Of a stretch of 64,000 bases of DNA, positions 2,097 through 60,541 are shown in pieces. The stretch's first letter is position 1. Each line of letters starts with the position of its first letter. This DNA is from a virus (taxonomy: Duplodnaviria; Caudoviricetes): IMG/VR virus record IMGVR_UViG_3300028603_000001, positions 96,001 through 160,000 of that record; one strand, 5' to 3'. Made by a program: the position numbers and the translations under genes. The notes beneath the pieces are model-generated. The model worked only from the letters and a program-made list of their open reading frames with translations. It did no database searches and had not been told where the DNA came from.

Positions 2097-2101
2097 GGTT
2101 G

Positions 2102-3259
2102 CCTAGACTTACCGCATTTTACTCGCAAGACCAGAATATGATAAAAGCTTATGAGGAAGGAAAAGACTTATACGCTGTTATTGCATCAATGTCTTTTGAT
2201 AAACCCTATGAAGAATGTCTAGAATTCTACCCTGAAGGAACTGAAATTATTCATGAGGGAAAAAAAATAATTACTGGAAACAAAACACACCAAAATAAAG
2301 CAGGTAAAGAAAGAAGAAATTTCGCAAAGAGTATCTTGCTCGGCTTGCTCTACGGACGTGGAGCAGCATCTATTGCTGAACAAATTAAAAAATCAAGAGA
2401 AGAAGCACAAGAGATTATTGATAAATTCTTCGCAGCTTTTCCAGCTGTTAAAAATTGGATTGATAAAACAATTGAAGATGCTCATAAATATGGTTATGTT
2501 GAAGATATAGCAGGTAGACGCAGAAGATTACCTGATATACAATTACCGCAATATACTGTTGAATTTTTAGATAAAAAGAAAACAGGAACGCTATTTAATC
2601 CATTATTAGAATGTGATGATAAGATTGATGAAGCTTCAAATAAGTTAATTAAAAAATATCAAGAAAAATGTTCAAATATTAAATATGCTAGAGATTATGA
2701 AAATCTAAAAGCTGAAGCATTAAAAGAAAAAATAGTTATACATAATAATACTGGTTTTATTGCTCAAGCTGAACGTCAAGCGGTTAATAGCCGCGTTCAG
2801 GGTGGAGCTGCGTCATTAACTAAAACAGCTTTAATCAACATCCATAATGATCAAAAGCTAAGAGATATGGGAGCGTATCTAATAAATACAGTTCACGATG
2901 AAATCTTAATAGAAGCTCCTGATAAATATGCAAAAGAAGCTGCTGAACGCTTAACAGAGATAATGATAAATTCAGCTAAAAAATATGTTCCTAATGTTCC
3001 AATGAGTTGCGATGCATATATAACGAATTCATGGTATTTAGATGAGTTTGCTGTAACGGTTAGATCTGAATTTAAAAAATTAATTAGCGGAGATCCAGAT
3101 GAAAATGTATATCCTATGGACCCAATGGACGCTTTTGAATATATGTGCAAATTAAGAAAAGAATCAACTAGAAGTCAATTATATGAATTAGTAGGTAAAT
3201 TACTACCGAGAGTTCCTGAAAATGTTGATACCTCATACGTATCATTAACGGAAGATTAA
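2102..3259 (+). CDS. polA: polA C-terminal fragment (rest of motif A, motifs B and C)
   Basis: Begins PRLTAFYSQD. Motif B RNFAKSILLGLLYG, ERQAVNSRVQG, motif C VHDE. The TTG at 2099 has no properly spaced SD. Confidence 0.93.
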   Translation, partial: PRLTAFYSQDQNMIKAYEEGKDLYAVIASMSFDKPYEECLEFYPEGTEIIHEGKKIITGNKTHQNKAGKERRNFAKSILLGLLYGRGAASIAEQIKKSREEAQEIIDKFFAAFPAVKNWIDKTIEDAHKYGYVEDIAGRRRRLPDIQLPQYTVEFLDKKKTGTLFNPLLECDDKIDEASNKLIKKYQEKCSNIKYARDYENLKAEALKEKIVIHNNTGFIAQAERQAVNSRVQGGAASLTKTALINIHNDQKLRDMGAYLINTVHDEILIEAPDKYAKEAAERLTEIMINSAKKYVPNVPMSCDAYITNSWYLDEFAVTVRSEFKKLISGDPDENVYPMDPMDAFEYMCKLRKESTRSQLYELVGKLLPRVPENVDTSYVSLTED

Positions 3260-3910: not shown

Positions 3911-3990
3911 AATATAATTATAAATAAACAGAGTTCGAAAAATCCTCTGTATAATAAAAACCAAAAAATGATTAAATAGTATATAAAAAA

Positions 3991-4030
3991 AATAAATACT
4001 ATCGCTTATTTTTAGGTGGTAGTATTTTTT
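3991..4030 (+). terminator. Intrinsic terminator
   Basis: AATACTATCGCTTA/TAGGTGGTAGTATT hairpin followed by a T run. Confidence 0.6.
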
Positions 4031-4040
4031 ATTTTCTTAA

Positions 4041-4130: not shown

Positions 4131-4192
4131 TACGTGAAAAAACACGTAAGCGCAGTTCACGTCTGAATATCCTGCGCTTAAAAAATTAAAAC
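4131..4192 (+). ncRNA. Candidate preQ1-I-like riboswitch / switchable leader of the transporter gene
   Basis: Stem TAAGCGCAG/CTGCGCTTA, loop starting TTC and ending C, A-rich tail AAAAAATTAAAAC. Lies directly upstream of a VUT/YhhQ gene. Confidence 0.4.
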
Positions 4193-4210
4193 TTTAAAGG
4201 AGAAAGAAAA

Positions 4211-4993
4211 ATGAATAAAATTAAACAAGCATTAAAAAAATCATTAACCTCAACTAGAAATATAAGAACACTATCAATTTTCTTGGGGTTAGTTTCTGTC
4301 TATTGTGTTATTGTTGTTCTTTACAATATTTTCGAATATAAATTCTTTGGGTTCACAGTATTAGAAAACATAAAAGTTCTTGGTGAACCAGTAATGATTG
4401 GAATGGGCGCTGGAACGTTAATTTCATGGATATCGTTCTTAATAATGGATGTTGTCACTGAAGTTTGGGGTAAAAAAACAGCCATTAAGATATTCACATT
4501 TGCAATGATTATTAGTATCACAACATCATTCTTTGGAATGGCTATAGCAAAAATAGGTGAACCATCTTATGGAGATGCTATTGAAAATATTTTTGGGAGT
4601 CATCCTAGAGTAACGATTGCTTCAGCATTTGCATTCTGGGTAGGAAGTTATGTTAACACATTGATAATGCATGTTATGAAAACACGAGCTGAAGATAAAG
4701 GAAAAGCAAAGAACAAGAAATTATTTGCTTTTAGAGCAACAACATCGACGTTACTTGGTCAAGCTGTTGATAATGCATTATTCCAAATAATTGGATTAGC
4801 ACCATTCGGAGTTGGTTTCTGGTTAGCGTCTCCATTTGGGTGGACATGGGGAATGGTAGTTGGTTCAATCATTGTTGGAACAATTTTAGAATTAGCTATT
4901 GAAGCAGTTCTAGTTCCATTCATAACTATTCCTCTATCTAACAAGTTGATCGCTAAAAAAGAAGCTGAAGAAGCAGAATTAGTTGCAGCTTAA
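4211..4993 (+). CDS. yhhQ: VUT/YhhQ (DUF165) queuosine-precursor transporter
   Basis: Multiple TM helices; motifs SFLIMDVVTEVWGKK, RVTIASAFAFWVGSYVN and RATTSTLLGQAVDN. Confidence 0.85.
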   Translation: MNKIKQALKKSLTSTRNIRTLSIFLGLVSVYCVIVVLYNIFEYKFFGFTVLENIKVLGEPVMIGMGAGTLISWISFLIMDVVTEVWGKKTAIKIFTFAMIISITTSFFGMAIAKIGEPSYGDAIENIFGSHPRVTIASAFAFWVGSYVNTLIMHVMKTRAEDKGKAKNKKLFAFRATTSTLLGQAVDNALFQIIGLAPFGVGFWLASPFGWTWGMVVGSIIVGTILELAIEAVLVPFITIPLSNKLIAKKEAEEAELVAA

Positions 4994-4995
4994 AA

Positions 4996-5661
4996 ATGAA
5001 AATTTTAATCACAGGTGCTAGTAACGGAATCGGTCTAGCAACAGCAAAATTATTTTTAGATCGAGGTTATGATGTAGTAGGATTAGACTTAGTTTCTAGT
5101 CCTCTACAAAACCTTAATTATGAACATTATATTTGCGATGTTTCTGAAAAAGATCAGCTACCAGACATTGATGATGTAAATATTTTATTTGTTAACGCTG
5201 GTTTTCAGAATACAGATGACGACATAAAAAACAATTTGTATTCAGCAATATATACTGTTGAAAAATATGGATTACAGAGCTCAATAAAATCTATATTATT
5301 TAACGCTTCAGTATCAGCTCACACAGGATTTGAATTTACTGAATATGTAGCAAGTAAAGCTGGTATGTTAGGTTTAATGAAAAATATAGCTGTTAAAGTT
5401 GCTAAATATGGTGCAACTTGTAATAGCTTAAGTTGTGGTGGTGTTTTAACCGATTTAAATCAACCTGTAATTGAAGATAAACAATTATGGGAAGAAATTA
5501 TGCAAGTCACACCGCTAAAGAAATGGGCAACAGCTGAAGAAGTTGCTGAATGGGTTTGGATGTTTACAGTCATTAATAAATCATGCACAGGACAAGATTT
5601 AATTATCGACAATGGAGAAAAAGATCTTAATAATAACTTTAAATGGCCTAACTACGAATAA
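4996..5661 (+). CDS. Short-chain dehydrogenase/reductase (SDR)
   Basis: ITGASNGIG Rossmann motif, NAG, catalytic YVASK, C-terminal TGQDLIIDNG. Starts 2 nt after the transporter stop. Confidence 0.9.
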   Translation: MKILITGASNGIGLATAKLFLDRGYDVVGLDLVSSPLQNLNYEHYICDVSEKDQLPDIDDVNILFVNAGFQNTDDDIKNNLYSAIYTVEKYGLQSSIKSILFNASVSAHTGFEFTEYVASKAGMLGLMKNIAVKVAKYGATCNSLSCGGVLTDLNQPVIEDKQLWEEIMQVTPLKKWATAEEVAEWVWMFTVINKSCTGQDLIIDNGEKDLNNNFKWPNYE

Positions 5662-5675
5662 AAAATAAATTCAAT

Positions 5676-5718
5676 AATAAATACTTCAAGAAATCAATTG
5701 TCTTGAAGTGTTTTTATT
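5676..5718 (+). terminator. Intrinsic terminator after transporter-SDR operon
   Basis: AATACTTCAAGA/TCTTGAAGTGTT hairpin plus T run. Confidence 0.65.
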
Positions 5719-5828
5719 TATAACATAAATACATATGTTTATATTAAAAAGTTAAGAGAACTTAAATTTTATATGTTAAATCTTAATATTAACTTGTATT
5801 ATATAATAAAGAAAGAGGTAATATAATT

Positions 5829-6119
5829 ATGGCACAAATACTAAATCAATTGATAGAACAAATAAAAGATCCGATAGAAATAATCAGTATATCAGCATCA
5901 TTTTTAGTTCTTATTTCTATGCTGGTTAAAACAACAAATTTCAAAGGAACAATATTTATGAGAATTTTCAATACTATTGGTAGTGTAATTTTTGTTTATT
6001 ATGGAATTGCAAGAATTTTACCAGCGGTTATTTTAATGAATAGTTTAATTGTGATTATTAATGTTATTTATATAATTAAGGAAACTAAAGACCACAAAAA
6101 GACTGCAAAAAATATATAG
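5829..6119 (+). CDS. Small 3-TM membrane protein (YgjV-like)
   Basis: Hydrophobic helices; RIFNTIGSVIFVYYG...MN...N pattern. Confidence 0.6.
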   Translation: MAQILNQLIEQIKDPIEIISISASFLVLISMLVKTTNFKGTIFMRIFNTIGSVIFVYYGIARILPAVILMNSLIVIINVIYIIKETKDHKKTAKNI

Positions 6120-6165
6120 ATATAAAAAAAATTGTATATTATATAATAAAGGAGGATTCTAATTT

Positions 6166-6732
6166 ATGAAAGAAAAAATAGAAGCCAGAACTTGTATTAT
6201 TCCTGTTCCAAAAGAGGAATGTGAACTTAAAAAATGTAAATGCACAGAATGTGATCATAAACCAGGTTGTGATTATGGTTGGATAATAGAATTATGGGAA
6301 AATGAAAATAAAGTCATGGGTAAAGATTCTTTACTAGGCCCAGCTGACCCCCGAATGATAAAACCAGATATGAGAAAAGGTCATTTTATAACAATTACTG
6401 GAAAATATGATTTCTGTCGTTTCAATGTCTCTAGAAAAAAAGATCTTATTATTATATATGATATCTATGTTGATGAGAAGGGTAGAGGGCAAGGTTTAAG
6501 TAGAAAATTACTTCAATATTTAATGGATAAGTATGACCGTGATATATTTGCGAAATGTGTCCGAGGAACATCAGCGGAAGATTTCTGGCGCCATATCGGT
6601 AAACAATTGGATGCTAATTTAGGCAAACCAGAACCACATGACATGTATGAGCATAGAGATGGTAAACGGGATTTAGGTTGGTATCTTGTGGAAAATAAAA
6701 ATAAGAAAACAACGAAAGAAGAGTTGTGGTGA
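6166..6732 (+). CDS. GNAT acetyltransferase with Cys-rich N-terminus
   Basis: Acetyl-CoA motif IYVDEKGRGQGLSRKLL and AEDFWRHIG. Confidence 0.8.
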   Translation: MKEKIEARTCIIPVPKEECELKKCKCTECDHKPGCDYGWIIELWENENKVMGKDSLLGPADPRMIKPDMRKGHFITITGKYDFCRFNVSRKKDLIIIYDIYVDEKGRGQGLSRKLLQYLMDKYDRDIFAKCVRGTSAEDFWRHIGKQLDANLGKPEPHDMYEHRDGKRDLGWYLVENKNKKTTKEELW

Positions 6733-6813
6733 AAATCATGAATCTTCTGTTTTATTAATTAATATATTGTATAATATATTACAACAAAATATACAGATAA
6801 ATGGAGGTATAAA

Positions 6814-7872
6814 GTGTTACCAGAATTAAAACCAGAACAACAAAATTGGACAAATCCATTTAAGGATATAAAACTAACTCCGTATCGATTAATTGCAGCA
6901 GGTGGTGGACCTAGAAATGTTGTCTTTCCTGATGGCTCAATTTTAAGTGCTGGAGATGTCAAACGTGAATTGAATTATCCTGGATTATTTGCTTGGAATG
7001 CCGAGAAAAAAGAATTGTTAGAATCGGTAGAATTTCTACATAAAAATCCTGATAGTAATTGGGATTTAGTAGTTGATAGTGGAGCTTATTCTGCTTGGTC
7101 AAAAGGTAAAATGTTTGATATGGATGAGTATATTACTTTTCTAGAATCAAATAAAATTTTAGACGTGTGTTTTTGGGCTGCTGAAGCGGATGTTATTCCT
7201 GGTTCCTTTGGAGTTGACCCGACAGAAGAACAAAGATTATCTGCGCCTGAAGAATCTTGGAATAATTACCTATACATGATTAAACGAGTTTCATGGCCTA
7301 AAAAGATAGTTCCTATTTTCCACCAAGGAGAAGATTTTAAACATTTGAGAAGAATGTTAGAGTATACATTTCCTGATGGTGATCATATTCCTTATATTGG
7401 GATTTCACCTAGAAATGATGTTCATGTAAGTGAAAAAATGAAGTGGTATGAAATGGTTTGGGGAATTATCAGAGAAAGTTCAAATCCAAATGTTTTAACT
7501 CATAACTTTGGTATGACAACAATCTCTATGATGGAACAATATCCAAGCTGTAGTTCAGATTCTACATCTTGCGTAAGAAGCGCTTCGTTTGGAAATATTA
7601 TGTTAGTAGTAAATGGTAAAGTTAAATCTATTTACGTAAGTGATCGACACATGGACAGTTCAGACCACATCTTAAATCAACCGCAGGCTATCAAAGAAGC
7701 AGTTGAGGAAGAATGTAAACGTATAGGACATGGATTAACTTTAAATGATTTAGTTTATAATGACCCAAAAGGGCAATACAGAGCTTTATTTAATTTATTT
7801 TCTTTATATGAATGGAGTTCAAATTTTGTATATGAAGGAACAAATCAATTTAAAGAATCATTATGGGATTAA
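6814..7872 (+). CDS. TGT/DpdA-like guanine transglycosylase (candidate DNA 7-deazaguanine insertase)
   Basis: TGT-type motifs VVDSGAYSAW, DVIPG, PIFHQGE, HNFGMT and SSDSTS. GTG start with SD GGAGGT. Confidence 0.75.
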   Translation: MLPELKPEQQNWTNPFKDIKLTPYRLIAAGGGPRNVVFPDGSILSAGDVKRELNYPGLFAWNAEKKELLESVEFLHKNPDSNWDLVVDSGAYSAWSKGKMFDMDEYITFLESNKILDVCFWAAEADVIPGSFGVDPTEEQRLSAPEESWNNYLYMIKRVSWPKKIVPIFHQGEDFKHLRRMLEYTFPDGDHIPYIGISPRNDVHVSEKMKWYEMVWGIIRESSNPNVLTHNFGMTTISMMEQYPSCSSDSTSCVRSASFGNIMLVVNGKVKSIYVSDRHMDSSDHILNQPQAIKEAVEEECKRIGHGLTLNDLVYNDPKGQYRALFNLFSLYEWSSNFVYEGTNQFKESLWD

Positions 7873-7901: not shown

Positions 7902-9032
7902 ATGATATTAAACACAAAAGAATTTAAAAATATTTGTAGTATAATTTTAAGTGCTGTCGATGGAAGTGAATTATCAAACTTAACAGAAACACTTGAATTA
8001 AAAACAATTGGAAAAACATTAACGTTATCAACAACCAATAAAGAGTATTACGCTAAAGTTTCGTTCCCTTTAGAACACGAAGAAGATTTTCACGCAGCGG
8101 TTAACGCTAATTTATTCTTAAAACTAATTGCTGCTATCACAACAGAAACAGTTGAATTGTTAGTAAAAGGAAATGTACTACATATTAAAGCGAACGGTAA
8201 TTATAAACTTCCTATTATCACTGAAAATGATAAGATGTTAGAAATTCCTGTTATTACAATCGAAAATAAAACCTTAGAAATGAATATCAATAGCTCTGTT
8301 TTAGACAGCATTGTGACTTATAATAGTAAACAATTAGCTATCGGCTCTGTTGCAAAACCAGTTCAAAAAATGTTTTATGTTGATAATAAAGGTTGTATAA
8401 CTTTTACAACAGGAGCCTGCGTAAACAGTTTTGAATTAGAAAAACCATTCTCTTTATTATTAAATAGTCGCTTAGTAAATCTATTCAAATTATTTAAAAA
8501 TACAGTTGTAAAATTCAGTTTAGGTTATGATCCAATCAGTGAAACAATTATCCAAACAAAAGTCTCTTTTGAGACTGATACAATAACTTTAACAGCTGTC
8601 ACAGGATGTGATGATAAATTATTAAGTCAAGTTCCAGTTGATGCAATTAGGGGAAGAGCTAATAAAGCTTATGATAATGTTGTTGTTCTAAATGTTATAG
8701 CAATTACAGAAGCTATTAACCGTCTACTATTATTTAGTGCTGGATATGGAAGTAAAGAAAATCTAAAACCTTATAGCTTATTTAAATTTGTAGATGATAA
8801 AGTAACTATTTATGATACTAAAGAAGAAAACACAGAGATTTTAAATTATCAAAATGGAACAACTCTTACAAATGAATATTCAATGACTTTAGATTTAATT
8901 GAATTTAAAAAAGTTTTAGATAACTGCAATGAACAGTATATGACAATGAACTTCGGAGATGGAAAAGCTTGTGTTATAACTAGAGGTTCTATTAAAAATG
9001 TATTACCTGAAGTAGTAACGAAATCTGTATAA
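7902..9032 (+). CDS. dnaN: DNA sliding clamp (DnaN/beta-like)
   Basis: 376 aa with alternating beta/alpha pattern; N-terminal LTLSTTN and C-terminal VLPEV features typical of clamps; replication context. Confidence 0.6.
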   Translation: MILNTKEFKNICSIILSAVDGSELSNLTETLELKTIGKTLTLSTTNKEYYAKVSFPLEHEEDFHAAVNANLFLKLIAAITTETVELLVKGNVLHIKANGNYKLPIITENDKMLEIPVITIENKTLEMNINSSVLDSIVTYNSKQLAIGSVAKPVQKMFYVDNKGCITFTTGACVNSFELEKPFSLLLNSRLVNLFKLFKNTVVKFSLGYDPISETIIQTKVSFETDTITLTAVTGCDDKLLSQVPVDAIRGRANKAYDNVVVLNVIAITEAINRLLLFSAGYGSKENLKPYSLFKFVDDKVTIYDTKEENTEILNYQNGTTLTNEYSMTLDLIEFKKVLDNCNEQYMTMNFGDGKACVITRGSIKNVLPEVVTKSV

Positions 9033-10153: not shown

Positions 10154-11158
10154 ATGATTAGAATAAAAGAAGACAAGTGTTTAAAACTGTCGGGGATAAC
10201 ATCATTATTTATATCTTTTGATTTTAATCTGAAAGTTATTGAAGTTATAAAATCAACAGATAAGTACGATTATAATAAAAAAACACATACATGGGAAGTT
10301 CCAATAACATCACTTGCTTATCTTTTAGATGAATTAACTTATATTGATGATATTGAGCTGCAGTTATATAATGAAACAGATAGTAAAGAACATTACTATC
10401 CAACATTGAATTATAAAATTCCACCTTTTAAGCACCAACTAGAAGGCATCGAATGGGGATTAAACATAAAAAAGGGGTTATTATTAGATGAGCCTGGAGC
10501 TGGAAAAACAACACAGATGATTTATTTAGCTGAAGAATTGAAAGCACAAAAAGGATTAGAACATTGTTTAATTATTTGTGGTATTAACGCTTTAAAATCA
10601 AACTGGAAAAAAGAAATAAATAAATTTTCTAGTTTATCTTGCAGAGTTTTAGGTGAAAAAGTAAATTCCAAAGGTAAAATTTCTTATTCAACAGTTAAGG
10701 AAAGGGTTCAAGAATTATTATCTCCAATAGATGCTTTTTTTGTCATCATCAATATAGAGACAATCAGATCAGATGAGGTTATCAAAGCAATAAAAAATGG
10801 TCCTAATAAGTTTGAAATGATAGTTGTTGATGAAGTACATAAGTGTTTTTCTGGTGATACATTAATAGCTACCGATAAAGGAAGTTTAAAAATAAAAGAT
10901 ATTGTTGAAAATAAATTAATGTGTAAAATTAAATCATATAATATCGACACTAATAAAGAAGAATATAAAGATATAGATATTTACTCATTATATAAATCTG
11001 AAAATGAAGAATCATTAATTCAATTAGAGATATTAGATGATAATAATAAGATACATATAATTAAATGTACGTTAGACCATCCAATATACACATTAAACAG
11101 AGGTTATGTAAAAGCTGAAAATTTACTAGAAACTGATGATATTTTAATCAATAATTAA
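10154..11158 (+). CDS. SNF2/DEAH helicase N-terminal half fused to split intein N-part
   Basis: Walker A DEPGAGKT, Walker B DEVHK, then CFSGDTLIAT (intein block A) and CTLDHPIYT (block B). Confidence 0.92.
   Translation: MIRIKEDKCLKLSGITSLFISFDFNLKVIEVIKSTDKYDYNKKTHTWEVPITSLAYLLDELTYIDDIELQLYNETDSKEHYYPTLNYKIPPFKHQLEGIEWGLNIKKGLLLDEPGAGKTTQMIYLAEELKAQKGLEHCLIICGINALKSNWKKEINKFSSLSCRVLGEKVNSKGKISYSTVKERVQELLSPIDAFFVIINIETIRSDEVIKAIKNGPNKFEMIVVDEVHKCFSGDTLIATDKGSLKIKDIVENKLMCKIKSYNIDTNKEEYKDIDIYSLYKSENEESLIQLEILDDNNKIHIIKCTLDHPIYTLNRGYVKAENLLETDDILINN
10844..11155 (+). mobile_element. Split intein N-fragment (104 aa)
   Basis: Cys1 block A, TxDH block B, RGYVKAENL, then stop. Confidence 0.92.
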
Positions 11159-11205
11159 TTGCTAAATTAGGTGTAAAAGTACACCGAAACAACAAGGAGT
11201 TAATT

Positions 11206-12324
11206 ATGAAAAAAATTTATAAGATAGTAAATACAGTAAATGATAAGATCTATATTGGAAAAACAATTAAAAAACTAGAAGATCGATTTAATGCTCATTT
11301 ATATGAAGCTAAAAGGTATGCAAAATGCTGCTTAGAAAAGAAATCATTTGGATATAATAGCTTGTTATATCCCGCTATGATAAAATACGGATGTGAAAAT
11401 TTTAAAATAGAATTAATTTCAGATTTTCCAGATGATGTTAATTTAGAAAATCTAGAAATTGAATATATAAAAAAATTTAATACGTGTGACCCAAATATTG
11501 GTTACAATATAAGCCCTGGAGGATTAGGTGGACCTTTATTTAAAGGACATATTCATTCAGATAAAGTGCGAAAACTAGCAAGCTTAAGGACTAAAGGTAT
11601 ACCACAATCTAAAGAATTTGTCGAAAAAAGAGTTCATAAACATAGAAAAAGATATCAAAATCTAAATACCGGAGAGATTTTCGAAGGTGCGAAAGCTGCT
11701 GAACAGGTTTATGGCGGGAGTATATATTATGCTGTAAAATATAATGGTAAGGCTAATGGTTATTTTTGGATAATGCTTGATGATAATCATTTCAATGGTT
11801 ATGATGAAATCGAAAGGTCAGAAATAGTAGCAATTCGGGAACAAGACTTACATAAAAGACGAGTTGAAGCTGTAATGAAGGGGAAACAAACCCAATCAGA
11901 AGAAGCAAAAAAGAAAGCTATAGAAAAAAGAGTCTTAACCTATAAAGAGAGAGCTTCTAATAGAACAAGAGAAGAAAAACTTAGGATAGCTAGAAATATT
12001 TCTCAAAGCCTAAAAGGTAAAAAACATTCACCAGAACGAATTCAAAAATTAAAAGATTATTATAAAACAGCACCTATAGAAGAATTAGAATTAAGATGGA
12101 AACGTAATGGTGATGGTCAAAGAGGTAAAAAACGTTATGAAAATGTAGATACTGGTAAACATAAAATGTTTATTCCAGGGCAACAACCAGAAGGATGGGT
12201 GAGGGTAATATCAAAACCAAAACCTAGGGGAAAGAGAAAATTTACAAATAAAATAACAGGTGAACATAAAATGTTTTTTCCTGAAGATGTTGATACTAAT
12301 TTATGGGAAAGGACTAGAAAATAA
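11206..12324 (+). mobile_element. GIY-YIG homing endonuclease with NUMOD3-like repeats between the intein halves
   Basis: KIYKIVNTVNDKIYIGKT, GYNISPGG, GHIHSDKVR and KGKKHSPE. Confidence 0.9.
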
Positions 12325-13415
12325 TGCTTGGAAAATTAATTAAAAAAGAAAAGCTTTTCGATAAAGAGATAGTTTATAATATTGGTGTTGCTGATAATGA
12401 TAATTATTTTGCAAATAACATATTAGTTCACAACTGTAAAAATAAATCTAGCCAGCAAGGTGATAATCTGCTTAAATTAACCGCTGATTACACTATAGGC
12501 TTAAGCGGTACTTTGATTTTAAATAATCCGATTGATGCCTTTGTTCCTTTAAAGTGGATTGGAGCAGAAAAATCTAATTTAACTAATTTTAAAGGAACTT
12601 ATTGCGTATATGGGGGATTTGGAAACAGAGAGATAATTGGGTATAAGAACTTAGATATATTAAAAGAAGTTCTACAAAAATACTCATTAAGAAGAACAAA
12701 ATCTGAATTTGCTGATTTACCTCCTAAAACAATTATTCGAGAAACTTTGGAAATGGACGCTTCTCATAAAAAGTTTTATGAAGATGTAAAAGCAGGAATT
12801 AAATCTGAGTGTGACAAAATAGAATTAAAAGCTGGAAATCTTTTATCATTAACCACGAGGTTAAGGCAAGCAACTAGCTGTCCATCTGAATTAACATCTT
12901 CTAATATAAAATCAGTTAAACTTGAACGCGCTGTTGAATTAGTAAGAGAAATTATTAGTAACGGAGATAAAGTCTTAGTGATGTCGATGTTTAAAGCTCC
13001 TATCTATGAACTCAGTAAGCTATTAGCTGAATATAAACCACTTATAGGAACTGGAGATCTTTCAGATGATGATGTATCTAAGAATAATGATTTATTTCAA
13101 GAAGATCCTAACTATAAAGTATTCTTAGGGACAGTTCAAAAAATAGGTACTGGGTTGACTTTTAATGCCGCTAATTATGCGATATTTATTGATTGTGCTT
13201 GGACAGCTGGTATGCAAGTACAATATGAAGATAGAATACACAGATTTGGAAGCACAAAACCAGTGTTTATTTATAGATTAATCTGTGAAAACACCTTTGA
13301 TGAAATTGTTGAAGAGATATTAGAAACAAAAAAAGCTTTCAGTGATTTCTTGATAGATGATGTTATTGATGAATCAACAATTCAAATACTGAGAAAATAT
13401 ATAGAAGATTTATAA
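12324..13415 (+). CDS. Split intein C-part (12324-12434) fused to SNF2 helicase C-terminal half
   Basis: VYNIGVADNDNYFANNILVHN|C, then LSGTLILN, LRRTK, GTGLTF and QYEDRIHRFG helicase motifs. Confidence 0.92.
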   Translation: MLGKLIKKEKLFDKEIVYNIGVADNDNYFANNILVHNCKNKSSQQGDNLLKLTADYTIGLSGTLILNNPIDAFVPLKWIGAEKSNLTNFKGTYCVYGGFGNREIIGYKNLDILKEVLQKYSLRRTKSEFADLPPKTIIRETLEMDASHKKFYEDVKAGIKSECDKIELKAGNLLSLTTRLRQATSCPSELTSSNIKSVKLERAVELVREIISNGDKVLVMSMFKAPIYELSKLLAEYKPLIGTGDLSDDDVSKNNDLFQEDPNYKVFLGTVQKIGTGLTFNAANYAIFIDCAWTAGMQVQYEDRIHRFGSTKPVFIYRLICENTFDEIVEEILETKKAFSDFLIDDVIDESTIQILRKYIEDL

Positions 13416-22879: not shown

Positions 22880-22962
22880 TTATAATTAAAAGCCACACCA
22901 CAGGCAACTGTGGGCCGGAAAGCCAGAGGGACTCTCAGTAGTCAGCCGTGCTGCAGAAAGAG
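22880..22962 (+). ncRNA. GEMM-I (c-di-GMP-I class) riboswitch
   Basis: GCCACA-CCACAG-GCAA-CTGTGG-GCCGGAAAGCC...GACT/AGTC-AGCCGTGCTGC: GNRA-capped P2, GAAAG junction and P3. Abuts the SD of the next gene. Confidence 0.85.
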
Positions 22963-22968
22963 GTAATT

Positions 22969-23538
22969 ATGAAAAACAAAAAAGAAAAAATTAATTTAAG
23001 AAAATTTTTATTTGTACTACCCTTGCTTTTATTAGCTCTAATCACAACAGTAGTAGCTACTTTTGCTTGGTGGAATACGTTAACAGTTGAAAAAGATTTT
23101 GATGGAACAATTGGTGACTCAGTCGTATTAAAATTAACAGCTGCTGATTTCAGTGGTGTTCTGGTTCCTGAAGATGTATATGATAATGACGAAGATATTT
23201 TAAATCAAGGTTGGGTAAAAGTATGGTCAACAAACTTAAACTTTACTGTCGATAGAACAGATACAACAGGTGATTCTTTTGTATTAACTATCACACCTGT
23301 TAAAATTTTTGTTGATGGAGTTGATCGAAGTTCTTATTTTGATTTGAAAATTTTAGATGGTGAAGATGATGACCTAAGCTATGATATTAATACTGCTAAA
23401 ACTTTAACGTTAAAATTAAGTTTTAGAGATATATTAGAAGAAGAACAAGAGGAGGTTAGAACAACATTCGCAGGATTCGCAGGGGAACAGTTAACTATAA
23501 CAATTGAAGCAAAAATCACAGCACAACCACAACCCTAA
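22969..23538 (+). CDS. Secreted protein with SipW-type signal peptide (TasA/CalY-like filament subunit candidate)
   Basis: Basic N-terminus, hydrophobic core, ATFA|WW cleavage motif, beta-rich body. Confidence 0.6.
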   Translation: MKNKKEKINLRKFLFVLPLLLLALITTVVATFAWWNTLTVEKDFDGTIGDSVVLKLTAADFSGVLVPEDVYDNDEDILNQGWVKVWSTNLNFTVDRTDTTGDSFVLTITPVKIFVDGVDRSSYFDLKILDGEDDDLSYDINTAKTLTLKLSFRDILEEEQEEVRTTFAGFAGEQLTITIEAKITAQPQP

Positions 23539-43216: not shown

Positions 43217-43567
43217 TTAAATATCAGTGTCCTGAACATCCTCATTTAAGATTATCTTTTTTTTCACAGGTTTATTATCTGCGTGTTCGCGATATAATTC
43301 AATAAGATTCATTATAGAATAAACAGCTAAATCCTTGAAGGTGTCTTCTAAACTCTCAAATTCGTTTTTGCCACTTCTAATTATATTTGTTGCTCTAGAC
43401 AACTTATTATGTAAAGGAACTAAACCCGCAATTGAACCTAATTCTTTATATAACTTTTCAAAACTGTTCCCATAATTAGAGTTCTTTTTCTCAAACAACT
43501 CAACCATCTCAAAGACAATTTTTTTAAATATTTCTACATCAGTCATTTTATATATCTCCGTTACCAT
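43217..43567 (-). CDS. DUF1599 / nucleotide-modification-associated domain protein
   Basis: KKNSNYGNSF...K..R...ESLEDTFKDLAVYSIM. Confidence 0.75.
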   Translation of the reverse strand: MVTEIYKMTDVEIFKKIVFEMVELFEKKNSNYGNSFEKLYKELGSIAGLVPLHNKLSRATNIIRSGKNEFESLEDTFKDLAVYSIMNLIELYREHADNKPVKKKIILNEDVQDTDI

Positions 43568-43569
43568 TA

Positions 43570-44082
43570 TTATCTACACTTTATCAAACCATATTCATCT
43601 GTATGTCTTTTATATATAATTGAAATATTATTATCATCATTAATATTTTTAAACACGTAGAAGGAATAGTCTGTTAATTCTAGCTCATCAATTGCTTCTT
43701 CTAATGATATTGGTTTTAAATCAAATATTTTTTCTTTTGTGATAGCAGGAAACATACCTGTATCCTCAATTCCTAAATCAAAAATACTTAGTTGTTTTTT
43801 TCTTTTTCTAGAATCAACTTCTTTTTTGTTAAACTTAATAACTGCTTTCTTTATTTTAGAAACTGCTTCAACGTACGCTGTATAGAAGTCACTGTTAGTA
43901 GCTTGAACTCTAAATTTATCTACAGTTAAATCAATTTTTATTTTATCGTTATTTAATTTAGTTAATTTTACTTCTGAGCGTTCAGAATTTGGAACTATCT
44001 TATTTAGCTTCTTTTCAAACGTATCTTCAACAAAACTCTTCATTGACTCTGTAAAGGTAATTTTATCACTTATAAATTTCAT
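43570..44082 (-). CDS. hpf: Ribosome hibernation promoting factor (long HPF)
   Basis: N-terminal S30AE-like region (DFYTAY) and C-terminal KPISLEEAI...FYVF.N......IIYKR....YGLI. Confidence 0.85.
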   Translation of the reverse strand: MKFISDKITFTESMKSFVEDTFEKKLNKIVPNSERSEVKLTKLNNDKIKIDLTVDKFRVQATNSDFYTAYVEAVSKIKKAVIKFNKKEVDSRKRKKQLSIFDLGIEDTGMFPAITKEKIFDLKPISLEEAIDELELTDYSFYVFKNINDDNNISIIYKRHTDEYGLIKCR

Positions 44083-50166: not shown

Positions 50167-51192
50167 TTAAAAGTCACCATTAATAATTCTTTTATTTACA
50201 GACATTACCCACTCTTCAATTTTTTTAATATCTGGCTTTTTAGGTAACTTAGTTGTTTCTAATGCACGTTTACATTTTTCCTCAATTGAAGCTACTAAAT
50301 CGTAAAACTCTTGATTCATAGTTCCATCTTTATCCATATATTTACCATTTCTGATATCCATTAGTAATTCATGGTCTTTTTTTCTATAAGTAATAATTTT
50401 TCCTTTTTTAAGAATATCTAAACACATTAAATATAATCTGACTAAATGCATAGCATGTTTATTTAAATGTGCATCATCTTTTTTGCGGTTTCTATTTAAA
50501 AGCTCTTTATAGTTTCTAGTAGTGTTAGAAATAGTTGAATATAAATTTTCTAAATCATCTGCTGGAAAATCTTTTAAATCTAAATCATAAACAAGCTTAC
50601 CATCTTTAACGTGAGCAAATGCTGGGTTAACTTCATTATTATGTTGCGCATTAAAAGCACTAATAGCATTTTCTAATGAAATAGCAATGTGCCTATTCTT
50701 TTCTTCTTCTATGTAATTATCTCTTGCAAGTGCGTTTTGTAATCTTTTTAAATTAGCTCTCGCATAACCACCAAAAGTATAAAAACATTTTTGAGATAAG
50801 AATAAATCTTTGTGCTCTAATAATTCTTTTCCTAGTGGTGATAAATAAATATAATGCTCTGGTTTTAAGCCTAAGCATTCAATAATATTAGGGTTATTAT
50901 CGATTAGTAATTTTACAATTTTATTAAACGCATAAATAGTTGTATCTGTAGATTCATTTATAAATTGTTCGAATGTTTTAAACCCAATGATTTCTTCAGG
51001 TCGTTCAATTGCGATACCCCTAATATCTACATCAGAGGTTTCAATGTTTGTTCCATAAGCGTGACTACCACCGAAGCATAACATGATGATATTTTTACCA
51101 AGATGCTCATTCTTTGTTAGGAACTCATAATCTTTATTTTTTAATATTTCCTCATATGAATATTTTTTTAATAATTCTTTTTCAATCATCAT
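50167..51192 (-). CDS. Nucleotidyltransferase (Pol-beta superfamily, YcgL/NrdC.11-like)
   Basis: GGSHAYGTNIETSDVDIRG, NPNIIE and KHAMHLVRL. Confidence 0.85.
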   Translation of the reverse strand: MMIEKELLKKYSYEEILKNKDYEFLTKNEHLGKNIIMLCFGGSHAYGTNIETSDVDIRGIAIERPEEIIGFKTFEQFINESTDTTIYAFNKIVKLLIDNNPNIIECLGLKPEHYIYLSPLGKELLEHKDLFLSQKCFYTFGGYARANLKRLQNALARDNYIEEEKNRHIAISLENAISAFNAQHNNEVNPAFAHVKDGKLVYDLDLKDFPADDLENLYSTISNTTRNYKELLNRNRKKDDAHLNKHAMHLVRLYLMCLDILKKGKIITYRKKDHELLMDIRNGKYMDKDGTMNQEFYDLVASIEEKCKRALETTKLPKKPDIKKIEEWVMSVNKRIINGDF

Positions 51193-55613: not shown

Positions 55614-56222
55614 TTATTTAATTTCAGTATTTATTTGTTCTAGTATTGGAAGAACACTTTTACAAGTATGGCACGCACCACAAGGCTTTCCATCAGCATC
55701 AGGAATACGACAAAACCAACACATATCTAAAAGGTCTTTAGGCATTTCTTTCATCAATGTTTTCTTCTTGGTGTTTGATATCATATCTATAACGCTTAAT
55801 GTTCTACCACAAACAATTTTTCTTACCGCTTCTGCGTTTTTAGATCTTCTCCGCATTTCTATAATTCCCATTCTCTCATATTCATCTCTAGGTGTACTAT
55901 AAACTATATGTGATATGTTGTAGGTTAAAGCGATCACACCAGAGATATATCCTTTGTGAAGAATGCTATCCAAAGGCATTTTAAACTCTTTAGGCTGTTC
56001 AAATTTTGTTTCAACATATTTAAAATCATCTAATCCATGCTCTTTTAACCAATCAAGAATTTTATGGCATGCCTCTAACTCTTTCTCCCATCTTCCAGTA
56101 TTGTTAACTAATATATTATGATGAACGATAACTGTTTCATCTGATTTTTTATAATCTTTCATATATTTATAAAGGCAGTATGTGCTATCGATACCGCCTG
56201 AAAAATTAATCAATGTAATCAT
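55614..56222 (-). CDS. queC: QueC-like PP-loop ATPase (7-cyano-7-deazaguanine synthase family)
   Basis: FSGGIDST and C-terminal Zn site WFC...PCGACHTC. Confidence 0.7.
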   Translation of the reverse strand: MITLINFSGGIDSTYCLYKYMKDYKKSDETVIVHHNILVNNTGRWEKELEACHKILDWLKEHGLDDFKYVETKFEQPKEFKMPLDSILHKGYISGVIALTYNISHIVYSTPRDEYERMGIIEMRRRSKNAEAVRKIVCGRTLSVIDMISNTKKKTLMKEMPKDLLDMCWFCRIPDADGKPCGACHTCKSVLPILEQINTEIK

Positions 56223-59770: not shown

Positions 59771-60541
59771 CTATGGTAAATTAAAATTAACTGCTTCTTT
59801 AAAACTCATAAAGAAGTGTATACCCTCAGCACACTCTATCCATCTATTTTCATTAAAATCAGAAACTTCAACCGTTTTATCAATTTCATAAGCAAAATTA
59901 TAATCAAATAAACTGCGAGCGAGTTTTATATCATCTAATTTATTACCCGCTAAATCGTAGAAACCAACAACTAGTGCTTTATCACAGCGACATTTTCGTG
60001 TAGTTGCGCTACTTCTTTTTGCATCTTTTGGAATAAGTAATTCGACAATAACAAATTCTTGTTTCTCTGCTACAACAGCTATACACTTTTTAAATCCTGT
60101 AAATGCTCCTATTTCCGGACATTGTAAATGATAAAAGGCTGTAGATTCATTTGCACTAACTCTACTTAAATCAGCCCTGTTTAAATTAGCCCTGTTTAAA
60201 TTAGCATAACGCAAATTAGCACCACTTAAATCAGCTCCGCGCAAATTAGCATTACTTAAATCAGCTCCACGGAAATCAACCATAAATAAAATAGAATCAC
60301 GTAAATCAGCGCCTCGTAAAATAGCATTAATTAAATTAACATTATTTAAATCAGCACCTCGTAAAATAGCATTACTTAAATTAGCACCGCTTAAATCAGC
60401 ACCGCTTAAATTAGTCCCAATTAAATAAGCCTTGCGTAAATTAGTATTACTTAAATCAGCACGTTCACCGCCTCTTCTGTTCAGCCAATCTGCGTGTTTT
60501 TCTAAAATTTCTTCTAATTCTTTTTCAGTTATTTCTCTCAT
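59771..60541 (-). CDS. Pentapeptide-repeat protein with DUF5758-like C-terminus
   Basis: A[DN]L.. repeats; KRSSATTRKCRC and ECAEGIHFF. Confidence 0.85.
   Translation of the reverse strand: MREITEKELEEILEKHADWLNRRGGERADLSNTNLRKAYLIGTNLSGADLSGANLSNAILRGADLNNVNLINAILRGADLRDSILFMVDFRGADLSNANLRGADLSGANLRYANLNRANLNRADLSRVSANESTAFYHLQCPEIGAFTGFKKCIAVVAEKQEFVIVELLIPKDAKRSSATTRKCRCDKALVVGFYDLAGNKLDDIKLARSLFDYNFAYEIDKTVEVSDFNENRWIECAEGIHFFMSFKEAVNFNLP

Follow-up and report, generated by a model that had tools for sequence, protein, structure and literature searches.

A putative salvage-fed 7-deazaguanine DNA-modification operon with a preQ1-I-like leader in a complete phage genome

In phages, 7-deazaguanine modification of DNA guards against restriction, and it has been well described where the phage makes the base itself. 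In the DNA of Streptococcus phage Dp-1, dPreQ1 is found at about 1.7% of G (Hutinet et al. 2019, PMC6884629), and the module of this phage has the order QueF-QueC-QueD-QueE-FolE-QueT-DpdA; two further enzymes, DpdN and DpdM, give N-formyl and N-methyl dPreQ1 (Hutinet et al. 2023, PMC10516641). E. coli YhhQ is an importer of preQ0 and preQ1, and the QPTR/YhhQ family (COG1738) comprises queuosine-precursor transporters (Zallot 2017, PMC5372724; PMC11130926). QueL, a radical-SAM queuine lyase, belongs to an indirect queuine salvage route (cited in PMC11130926). The source of the base in phages without the pathway was an open point in a 2019 survey. The locus described here offers a concrete, testable answer. 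It lies in a window of 64,000 nucleotides, bases 96001-160000 of a complete 180.8-kb IMG/VR phage record (IMGVR_UViG_3300028603_000001; direct terminal repeats, G+C ~29%), and consists of five genes between polA and the sliding clamp gene, preceded by a riboswitch-like leader. We read it as a riboswitch-gated, salvage-fed 7-deazaguanine DNA-modification operon in which a dehydrogenase would make preQ1 and an acetyltransferase would acetylate it (a rough probability of 0.55 for the reading as a whole). That the locus serves salvage-fed DNA modification by DpdA, taken alone, is quite probable.

The original prediction, made from the window's sequence, had described a run of genes for a VUT/YhhQ transporter, an SDR (short-chain dehydrogenase/reductase), a small membrane protein, a GNAT acetyltransferase and a TGT/DpdA-like enzyme, and all five were found at the places given, in a single orientation. 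The position which it took as the start of the unit, 4131, is a hairpin within a structured leader that begins at about 3928; the riboswitch-like nature of this leader had been missed. Its central proposal, a salvage-fed 7-deazaguanine modification of DNA, was well supported by a de novo preQ1 pathway in the same slot of sister phages, the QPTR family of the transporter, the preQ1-like leader and a TGT-fold DpdA with both Asp motifs. The features of the locus are:

2099-3259, + strand: C-terminal part of polA, a gene interrupted by a GIY-YIG endonuclease gene (1106-2017)
3928-3973, + strand: upstream preQ1-I-like hairpin, candidate transcriptional riboswitch element (own covariance model; sub-threshold for Rfam RF00522)
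3994-4037 (hairpin 3994-4027), + strand: terminator-like hairpin and T-run between the two leader elements, after the preceding open reading frame (ORF) (consensus scan)
4150-4204, + strand: long-loop preQ1-I-like leader element abutting the ribosome-binding site (P1 covariation)
4211-4993, + strand: VUT/QPTR (YhhQ-family) transporter, 260 aa (PF02592, TIGR00697)
4996-5661, + strand: classical SDR, apparently of NAD(H) type, 221 aa, starting 3 nt past the VUT stop codon (adh_short_C2, 1.5e-21)
5829-6119, + strand: 96-aa three-helix membrane protein, semiSWEET/PnuC/YgjV type (weak Pfam matches)
6166-6732, + strand: DpdA-associated GNAT acetyltransferase, 188 aa, with a Cys-rich N-terminal extension (Pfam, AlphaFold2 fold)
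6814-7872, + strand: DpdA-type (TGT-superfamily) guanine transglycosylase, 352 aa (phrog_887, Dp-1 gp7 homology, AlphaFold2 fold)
7902-9032, + strand: sliding clamp, directly 3' of the DpdA gene

In the proposed mechanism, the preQ1-I-like leader, with its two elements and the terminator-like hairpin between them, would shut the operon when the base is plentiful; VUT would import a queuosine-family precursor, and the translationally coupled NAD-type SDR would turn it into preQ1 usable by DpdA, perhaps by oxidising the cyclopentenediol of queuine with subsequent ring loss (in net terms the reaction of QueL). DpdA, to judge from its Dp-1 homologue, would swap guanine in phage DNA for this base, GNAT may acetylate the 7-aminomethyl group, whether of the free base or within DNA, to give N-acetyl-preQ1 (the least secure step), and the small three-transmembrane protein may be a second or accessory transporter component. 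Three components of such an operon would be undescribed. The first, a dehydrogenase coupled to a transporter and widespread among gut and rumen bacteria that salvage queuosine, would close a gap in queuosine salvage; the second, an acetyltransferase coupled to DpdA, would bring a new base to DNA; the third would be a phage-carried riboswitch variant. In its fullest form, with the SDR as a new cofactor-simple enzyme of gut and rumen bacteria, borrowed by phages, that converts queuine (or another queuosine precursor) to preQ1, GNAT as the maker of N-acetyl-preQ1, an undescribed DNA base, and a long-loop preQ1-I variant ahead of both, the proposal is unlikely.

The DpdA-like protein matched phrog_887 (7e-43) and Dp-1 gp7 (39% identity, 5e-53) and had no Pfam match, TGT included. 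The top Foldseek matches of its AlphaFold2 model (pLDDT 92) in PDB were all tRNA-guanine or archaeosine transglycosylases (E 1e-7 to 1e-5, TM score ~0.5), sequence searches of PDB with DpdA and with GNAT having given nothing useful. Two residues, D88 in a DSG motif and D249 in an SDST motif, were invariant in 23 sequences and would be, by motif, the equivalents of TGT Asp102 and Asp280. As in Dp-1, the gene is placed directly before those for DnaN and a Cas4-like nuclease in the replication module, and an importer is present in both phages; unlike Dp-1, the present phage has VUT instead of QueT, is without FolE, QueD and QueE as well as QueC and QueF, and has in addition the SDR, the three-transmembrane protein and GNAT, while its DpdA bears an N-terminal extension of ~30 aa and an insertion. 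The same DpdA-DnaN-Cas4 synteny was found in Dp-1 and in Bacillus phage Flasso, both with full preQ1 pathways, and because of this synteny and of the dPreQ1 in Dp-1 DNA the base of this DpdA lineage is most likely preQ1. When the nucleotides of the region were compared with GenBank phages, the sole match (102 bp) was likewise to Flasso.

An alignment-based scan of viral contigs recovered 80 loci with this DpdA type, which were dereplicated at 90% DpdA identity to 48 clusters; alignments were needed, single-sequence pattern scans for GNAT and SDR in viral contigs having yielded almost nothing new. DpdA stood between polA and the clamp gene in all 80 loci, and the genes in between were interchangeable. 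De novo genes were present in 18 clusters (10 with QueF, i.e. preQ1; 4 with QueC/D/E/FolE; 4 with QueD/E/FolE), QueF and VUT only in one (L067), QueC with VUT and a small membrane protein in two, VUT or QueT alone in several, and VUT with SDR in 13. In the closest de novo relative (L010/L050, DpdA 63% identical), QueE, QueF, QueC and FolE occupied the place of the VUT, SDR, membrane protein and GNAT genes. The space between polA and the clamp gene is thus a 7-deazaguanine supply slot in which de novo genes and importers are exchangeable. It also gathers several DNA-modification functions in relatives: DNA methyltransferase genes, of MT-A70 type or of N6 type adjoining a GIY-YIG endonuclease gene, lay between the salvage genes and GNAT-DpdA in L004 (7385-7936), L009 (5704-7403) and L040 (4467-6007). 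The DpdA gene of L010 (= L050; IMGVR_UViG_3300021399_000106) had an in-frame TGA at a conserved Trp (8181-8183, LFAWN to LFA*N), for which nonsense mutation, read-through or recoding of TGA as Trp are possible; the other ORFs of that locus appeared intact under table 11.

The original prediction had noted that folE, queD, queE and queF were missing from the window, and this holds for the complete 180.8-kb genome: a Pfam search gave no match to PTPS/QueD, GTP cyclohydrolase I or QueF (PF14489), and tblastn with phage QueC, QueD, QueE, QueF, FolE and QueT queries gave nothing. The complete genome is therefore without FolE, QueD, QueE, QueF or a canonical QueC; import of a precursor is most likely, as the phage has no genes for making a queuosine-type base, and a preQ1-type base would most likely have to come from outside or from the host. 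The two further genes named in that prediction do exist, a QueC-like gene (55614-56222, - strand) and a DUF1599 gene (43217-43567, - strand; "nucleotide modification associated domain 1"), the QueC match itself being weak. In the genome-wide search the QueC-like gene scored 16.5 bits, below the Pfam cut-off of 22, through its PP-loop; the isolated protein reached 25.2 bits, with no single stretch passing alone and only the N-terminal PP-loop aligned, and scored 19 bits against the full-length QueC profile TIGR00364 (cut-off 150). It matched phrog_1550 (2.5e-19) and had an SGGIDS PP-loop and a C-terminal CxxC...CxxCxxC pattern. The gene was rejected as a part of the module because it was missing in five relatives, three of them estimated to be at least 90% complete; one relative without it, estimated to be 100% complete, has the same module of VUT, SDR, membrane protein, GNAT and DpdA.

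The main leader element (element 2, 4150-4204) has a P1 stem GCGCAG/CUGCGC, a 16-nt loop UUC...AUC and an A-rich tail, with GGAG at 4199-4202 and the ATG at 4211. The upstream one (element 1, 3928-3973) has a P1 stem CAGAG/CUCUG, an 11-nt loop starting with UUC and an A-rich tail, and scored 28.1 bits (E 0.0036) with our own covariance model; it is among the weaker tandem upstream copies found in six phages (the present one, L039, L045, L040, L006 and L046). Only the long-loop class was scored for covariation, because MAFFT misaligned leaders of unequal loop length; the alignment (A8) comprised 16 long-loop examples and was the seed of the covariance model R1. P1 was 99% paired, three of its six pairs were compensatory, and the covariation (0.293) exceeded that of all 500 shuffles and all slid controls, while the register of the P2 pseudoknot shifted among sequences. 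Invariant positions were the UUC at the loop start (columns 7-9), the C before the P1 3' strand (column 22) and the A-tract, and they correspond to positions described as contacting preQ1 (reviewed in PMC11625349). Non-seed copies were recovered with R1 in the bacterial VUT-SDR operons L142, L127 and L138 (73-79 bits) and directly before queF in the de novo relative L050 (6063-6115, 54.3 bits), and a hairpin with a UUC loop and an A-rich tail running into the Shine-Dalgarno sequence was seen upstream of almost every VUT gene, phage or bacterial.

Like the preQ1-I riboswitches (RF00522; types I-III, PMC11625349), these leaders have a short P1, a loop opening with UUC, a conserved C just 5' of the P1 3' strand, and a tail rich in A that leads into the Shine-Dalgarno sequence, and they stand before yhhQ-type and queF genes; they differ in the 15-16-nt loop of the main element, which was unrecognised by RF00522, and in the 17.7 bits of the upstream element (gathering score 39). 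The leader of a bacterial VUT-SDR operon with a 12-nt loop (L155) matched the Rfam PreQ1 model end to end (28.9 bits, E 2e-4), also below the gathering score of 39, and an Rfam scan at gathering level of 11 bacterial VUT-SDR loci detected no riboswitch at the operon; the leader surfaced by eye, by a regular expression and by our own model. The regular expression also caught the E. coli yhhQ leader. This match is a likely positive control, since type III sequences have been linked to yhhQ and a type III preQ1-I riboswitch from E. coli has been characterised structurally (PMC11625349). Both elements are therefore best called preQ1-I-like: they probably sense preQ1 and are not proven members of the family, and the terminator-like hairpin at 3994-4037 would be the expression platform. 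A further hairpin (TACGTG-AAAAAA-CACGTA, 4131-4148, + strand) stands just 5' of element 2, and the two together gave a weak match to the Rfam freshwater-2 model (26.1 bits; gathering score 49.9).

The transporter matched PF02592 (2e-28, 100.1 bits; cut-off 27.2) and the "queuosine precursor transporter" family TIGR00697 (60.9 bits; cut-off 50.95), and scored 17 bits with NF008406, the E. coli-type equivalog. It shares Pfam and TIGRFAM membership with the QPTR/YhhQ transporters and, with E. coli yhhQ, a preQ1-I-type leader before the gene; the clade to which it belongs is a separate, well-supported one, in which an SDR, or else an amidase or GDSL hydrolase, is nearly always coupled to VUT. A maximum likelihood tree of 61 rows, in which the E. 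coli branch was long and the root arbitrary, showed two clades (100/98 support), one with E. coli YhhQ and the phage VUTs standing alone or accompanying QueF or QueC, the other with the sampled bacterial VUTs that are SDR-linked, a single one excepted, and those phage VUTs that have an SDR, GDSL hydrolase or amidase partner, that of the present phage among them. This split suggests a different cargo, which would need processing. The VUTs of L006 (2338-4725) and L040 (441-2722) were coupled to an amidase-signature enzyme of 484-497 aa (PF01425, 1e-79 in L006), replacing or joining VUT-SDR, and formed a supported pair of their own in the tree; a GDSL/SGNH hydrolase gene stood between or beside VUT and SDR in L007 (5989-6684; also in L045), L039 (4330-4941) and L101 (~11384), the SDR of L039 being split into ORFs of 58 and 132 aa. 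These partners hint at the salvage of several conjugated precursors.

Every phage cluster with SDR had VUT (13 of 13) and none had QueD/E or QueF (0 of 13); Fisher tests gave 1.5e-4 and 7e-4, which are indicative only, as the clusters are related. The phage SDRs were 40-87% identical to one another even where the DpdAs were only 33-49% identical, and are therefore regarded as one specific family. A scan of one genome per prokaryote species recovered 80 loci with SDR orthologues (49-62% identity), all from gut, rumen or faecal metagenome-assembled genomes (MAGs) of Bacillota, Bacteroidota, Fibrobacterota, Spirochaetota, Kiritimatiellia and Eggerthellaceae, and VUT was immediately 5' of SDR in 77 of them, often with a 4-nt overlap with the SDR start. 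At the three loci without an upstream VUT, no QueK, QrtT or QueL-like neighbour was found. Five VUT-SDR genomes were searched for queuosine genes: all had a strong tRNA TGT (488-533 bits) and QueA (375-459 bits), none had a real QueC and one had QueF, so that these bacteria require preQ1 but are unable to make it. Among 121 Clostridia genomes sampled at order level, SDR was present in 18, QueF in 4 and both in none, numbers too small to mean anything. We found no paper linking QPTR/YhhQ to an SDR. In three Bacteroidales MAGs (L140, 887-3656; also L148 and L189), a leader-like match (27-29 bits) and an ORF of 199-234 aa without a Pfam family preceded VUT and SDR, and L140 also had a HAD hydrolase, an arrangement which may be an extended salvage operon.

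On these comparisons VUT-SDR is a conserved bacterial salvage cassette that phages have borrowed, and the SDR is probably the precursor-converting partner of the transporter. The original prediction had treated the SDR as a tailoring enzyme that might oxidise the queuine cyclopentenediol or reduce an intermediate. The first of these two guesses agrees with the chemistry preferred here; the tailoring role is better replaced by that of a transporter partner, because the cassette is conserved in queuosine-salvaging gut bacteria without DpdA, and preparation of the base ahead of its insertion is therefore the most likely task of the SDR. The alignment of 11-16 phage members contained the TGxSxGIG, NNAG and Ser-Tyr-Lys motifs with an intact catalytic tetrad, an invariant Asp after beta2, which is a mark of preference for NAD rather than NADP, and no invariant Cys; in the divergent member L066 the catalytic Lys is replaced by Gln. 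Alcohol oxidation followed by elimination is ordinary SDR chemistry. Queuine is a possible substrate, though a doubtful one: oxidation of an alcohol in its cyclopentenediol and subsequent elimination would release preQ1. The SDR would then have the same net role as QueL, from salvaged queuine to preQ1 for a transglycosylase, and both occur in gut anaerobes without de novo synthesis; it differs from QueL in its unrelated fold and cofactor (classical NAD-type), and its activity is wholly inferred.

GNAT matched Acetyltransf_1 (PF00583; 24.7 bits, cut-off 20.7), and its AlphaFold2 model (pLDDT 89.4) gave 323 PDB matches at E<=1e-3, the top hits listed being all GNATs and the nearest Naa50, NatD, RimI and EctA. 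The acetyl-CoA motif RGQG (R107-G108-Q-G) was conserved, as were five Cys (C10, C19, C26, C29 and C35) in the ~50 N-terminal residues of this long form. A search of 5.8 billion proteins returned 63 clusters, all at least 51% identical, and no more distant relative, and DpdA was the next gene 3' of GNAT in every context read in which the contig held downstream DNA. Short-form homologues (98.2 and 98.6% probability in hhalign), which lack the Cys region, overlapped the dpdA start in L074, beside a full de novo preQ1 pathway including QueF, and in L120 and L203, with VUT only. The 12 clusters with GNAT comprised 8 with SDR, 1 with amidase only, 2 with VUT only and 1 with de novo preQ1 genes, and GNAT was found in none of the 8 clusters limited to preQ0 or 7-carboxy-7-deazaguanine (CDG), a distribution which fits an enzyme needing the aminomethyl group of preQ1. 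The co-occurrence proposed as a check in the original prediction was thus found across phages, since GNAT was always directly 5' of DpdA where this could be read and SDR with VUT was present in 13 of the 48 DpdA clusters and SDR in 8 of the 12 GNAT clusters. Its suggestion that GNAT makes N-acetyl-preQ1 fits the adjacency to DpdA and the restriction to preQ1-capable modules and is unproven; acetylation of the preQ1 amine is a tentative assignment, at somewhat less than even odds. The aminomethyl groups of phage DNA are acetylated in the 5-acetylaminomethyl-dU system. DpdN and DpdM follow the same logic, that of a DpdA-adjacent enzyme decorating the 7-aminomethyl group; the candidate here differs from them in being a GNAT acetyltransferase, is likened to them by description, and "acetyl" is absent from the main text of PMC10516641.

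The small membrane protein accompanies VUT in several phage modules. Its Pfam matches (YgjV, POPDC) were weak, and its nearest neighbours in features and structure were small viral inner-membrane proteins and three-helix bundles of YgjV, PnuC and semiSWEET type (score 0.81-0.88, TM score 0.7-0.8), which are leads only.

Different roles for the two enzymes were weighed. Were the SDR a non-orthologous replacement of QueF, VUT would import preQ0 and the SDR would reduce its nitrile to the amine of preQ1. In agreement with this, SDR and QueF were found together in none of the 48 phage clusters, a module of QueF and VUT exists (L067), and the VUT-SDR bacteria are mostly without QueF, yet have TGT and QueA. 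However, nitrile reduction of QueF type requires a Cys thioimide and NADPH, which makes the SDR an unlikely analogue: QueF, the only known nitrile reductase, is unrelated to it in fold and works via a catalytic Cys, the SDR family has no invariant Cys, and its invariant Asp points to NAD(H), not NADPH. Moreover, the phage VUTs accompanying QueF belong to the E. coli YhhQ clade and the SDR-linked ones to the other, suggesting different cargo, so that replacement of QueF is quite improbable. It is less improbable, though still rather unlikely, that GNAT acetylates a protein (DpdA or a host factor) or another small molecule, or is a non-catalytic partner of DpdA: its nearest structures are protein N-terminal and small-amine acetyltransferases, its Cys-rich extension could bind protein or nucleic acid, and no GNAT is encoded near dpdA in the closest relative with de novo preQ1 genes. 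What speaks for the base as substrate is that the family occurs only with modules able to supply an amine-bearing one (0 of 8 preQ0-only or CDG-only clusters), that acetylation of aminomethyl groups has the 5-acetylaminomethyl-dU precedent, and that DpdN and DpdM formylate and methylate preQ1 (PMC10516641).

Two other explanations concern the module as a whole. Only VUT and DpdA might form the modification system, the SDR, membrane protein and GNAT being unrelated cargo of a recombination hot spot; the slot in relatives does carry methyltransferases, homing endonucleases, an isochorismatase, a GDSL hydrolase and an amidase, and the SDR and GNAT superfamilies are very large and functionally diverse. 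Chance cargo would hardly account, however, for VUT-SDR adjacency, which spans several bacterial phyla (77 of 80 loci) and every phage cluster with SDR (13 of 13) and often involves an overlap of stop and start codons, for GNAT-DpdA adjacency in every readable GNAT locus, including those with DpdAs only 35-40% identical, or for a GNAT family found nowhere else among the 5.8 billion proteins searched, and we hold this explanation to be improbable to a marked degree. That the module serves tRNA queuosine of host or phage, with the DpdA-like enzyme as a tRNA transglycosylase, is very improbable: the TGT-superfamily fold and the service of VUT-SDR to tRNA queuosine salvage in bacteria without DpdA would agree with it, but no Pfam TGT match was found for the enzyme, which groups with phage DpdA (phrog_887, and gp7 of Dp-1, whose DNA bears dPreQ1) and is always encoded within the replication module, from polA to the clamp.

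Several observations weigh against the riboswitch-gated, salvage-fed operon as proposed here. The slot collects unrelated cargo in relatives (DNA methyltransferases, GIY-YIG endonucleases, an isochorismatase and an endonuclease I-like gene), the amidase and GDSL hydrolase partners of VUT lack an explanation, and one phage exception, L058, pairs SDR with a YhhQ-clade VUT. In the closest de novo relative GNAT is absent from the 8 kb flanking dpdA on each side; in L006 it is split, and the structures nearest to it are N-acetyltransferases of generic kind, for amines and proteins. The RF00522 gathering score is reached by neither leader element, element 2 going unrecognised, and the cluster co-occurrence counts are not phylogenetically independent.

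Outside the operon, the window contained a helicase gene (10154-13415, + strand) seemingly split, as is polA upstream, by a free-standing GIY-YIG homing endonuclease gene (11206-12324), and a c-di-GMP-I riboswitch aptamer (22882-22958, + strand; 45.8 bits, Rfam gathering score 35, full-length model match) overlapping the GTG start of the ORF at 22948-23538. A phage ribosome hibernation factor with S30AE N- and C-terminal domains (43570-44082, - strand; 8.8e-17) adjoined the DUF1599 gene at 43217-43567, and a pentapeptide-repeat protein fused to DUF5758 (59771-60541, - strand) and an RlaP-like nucleotidyltransferase (50167-51192, - strand) were also encoded.

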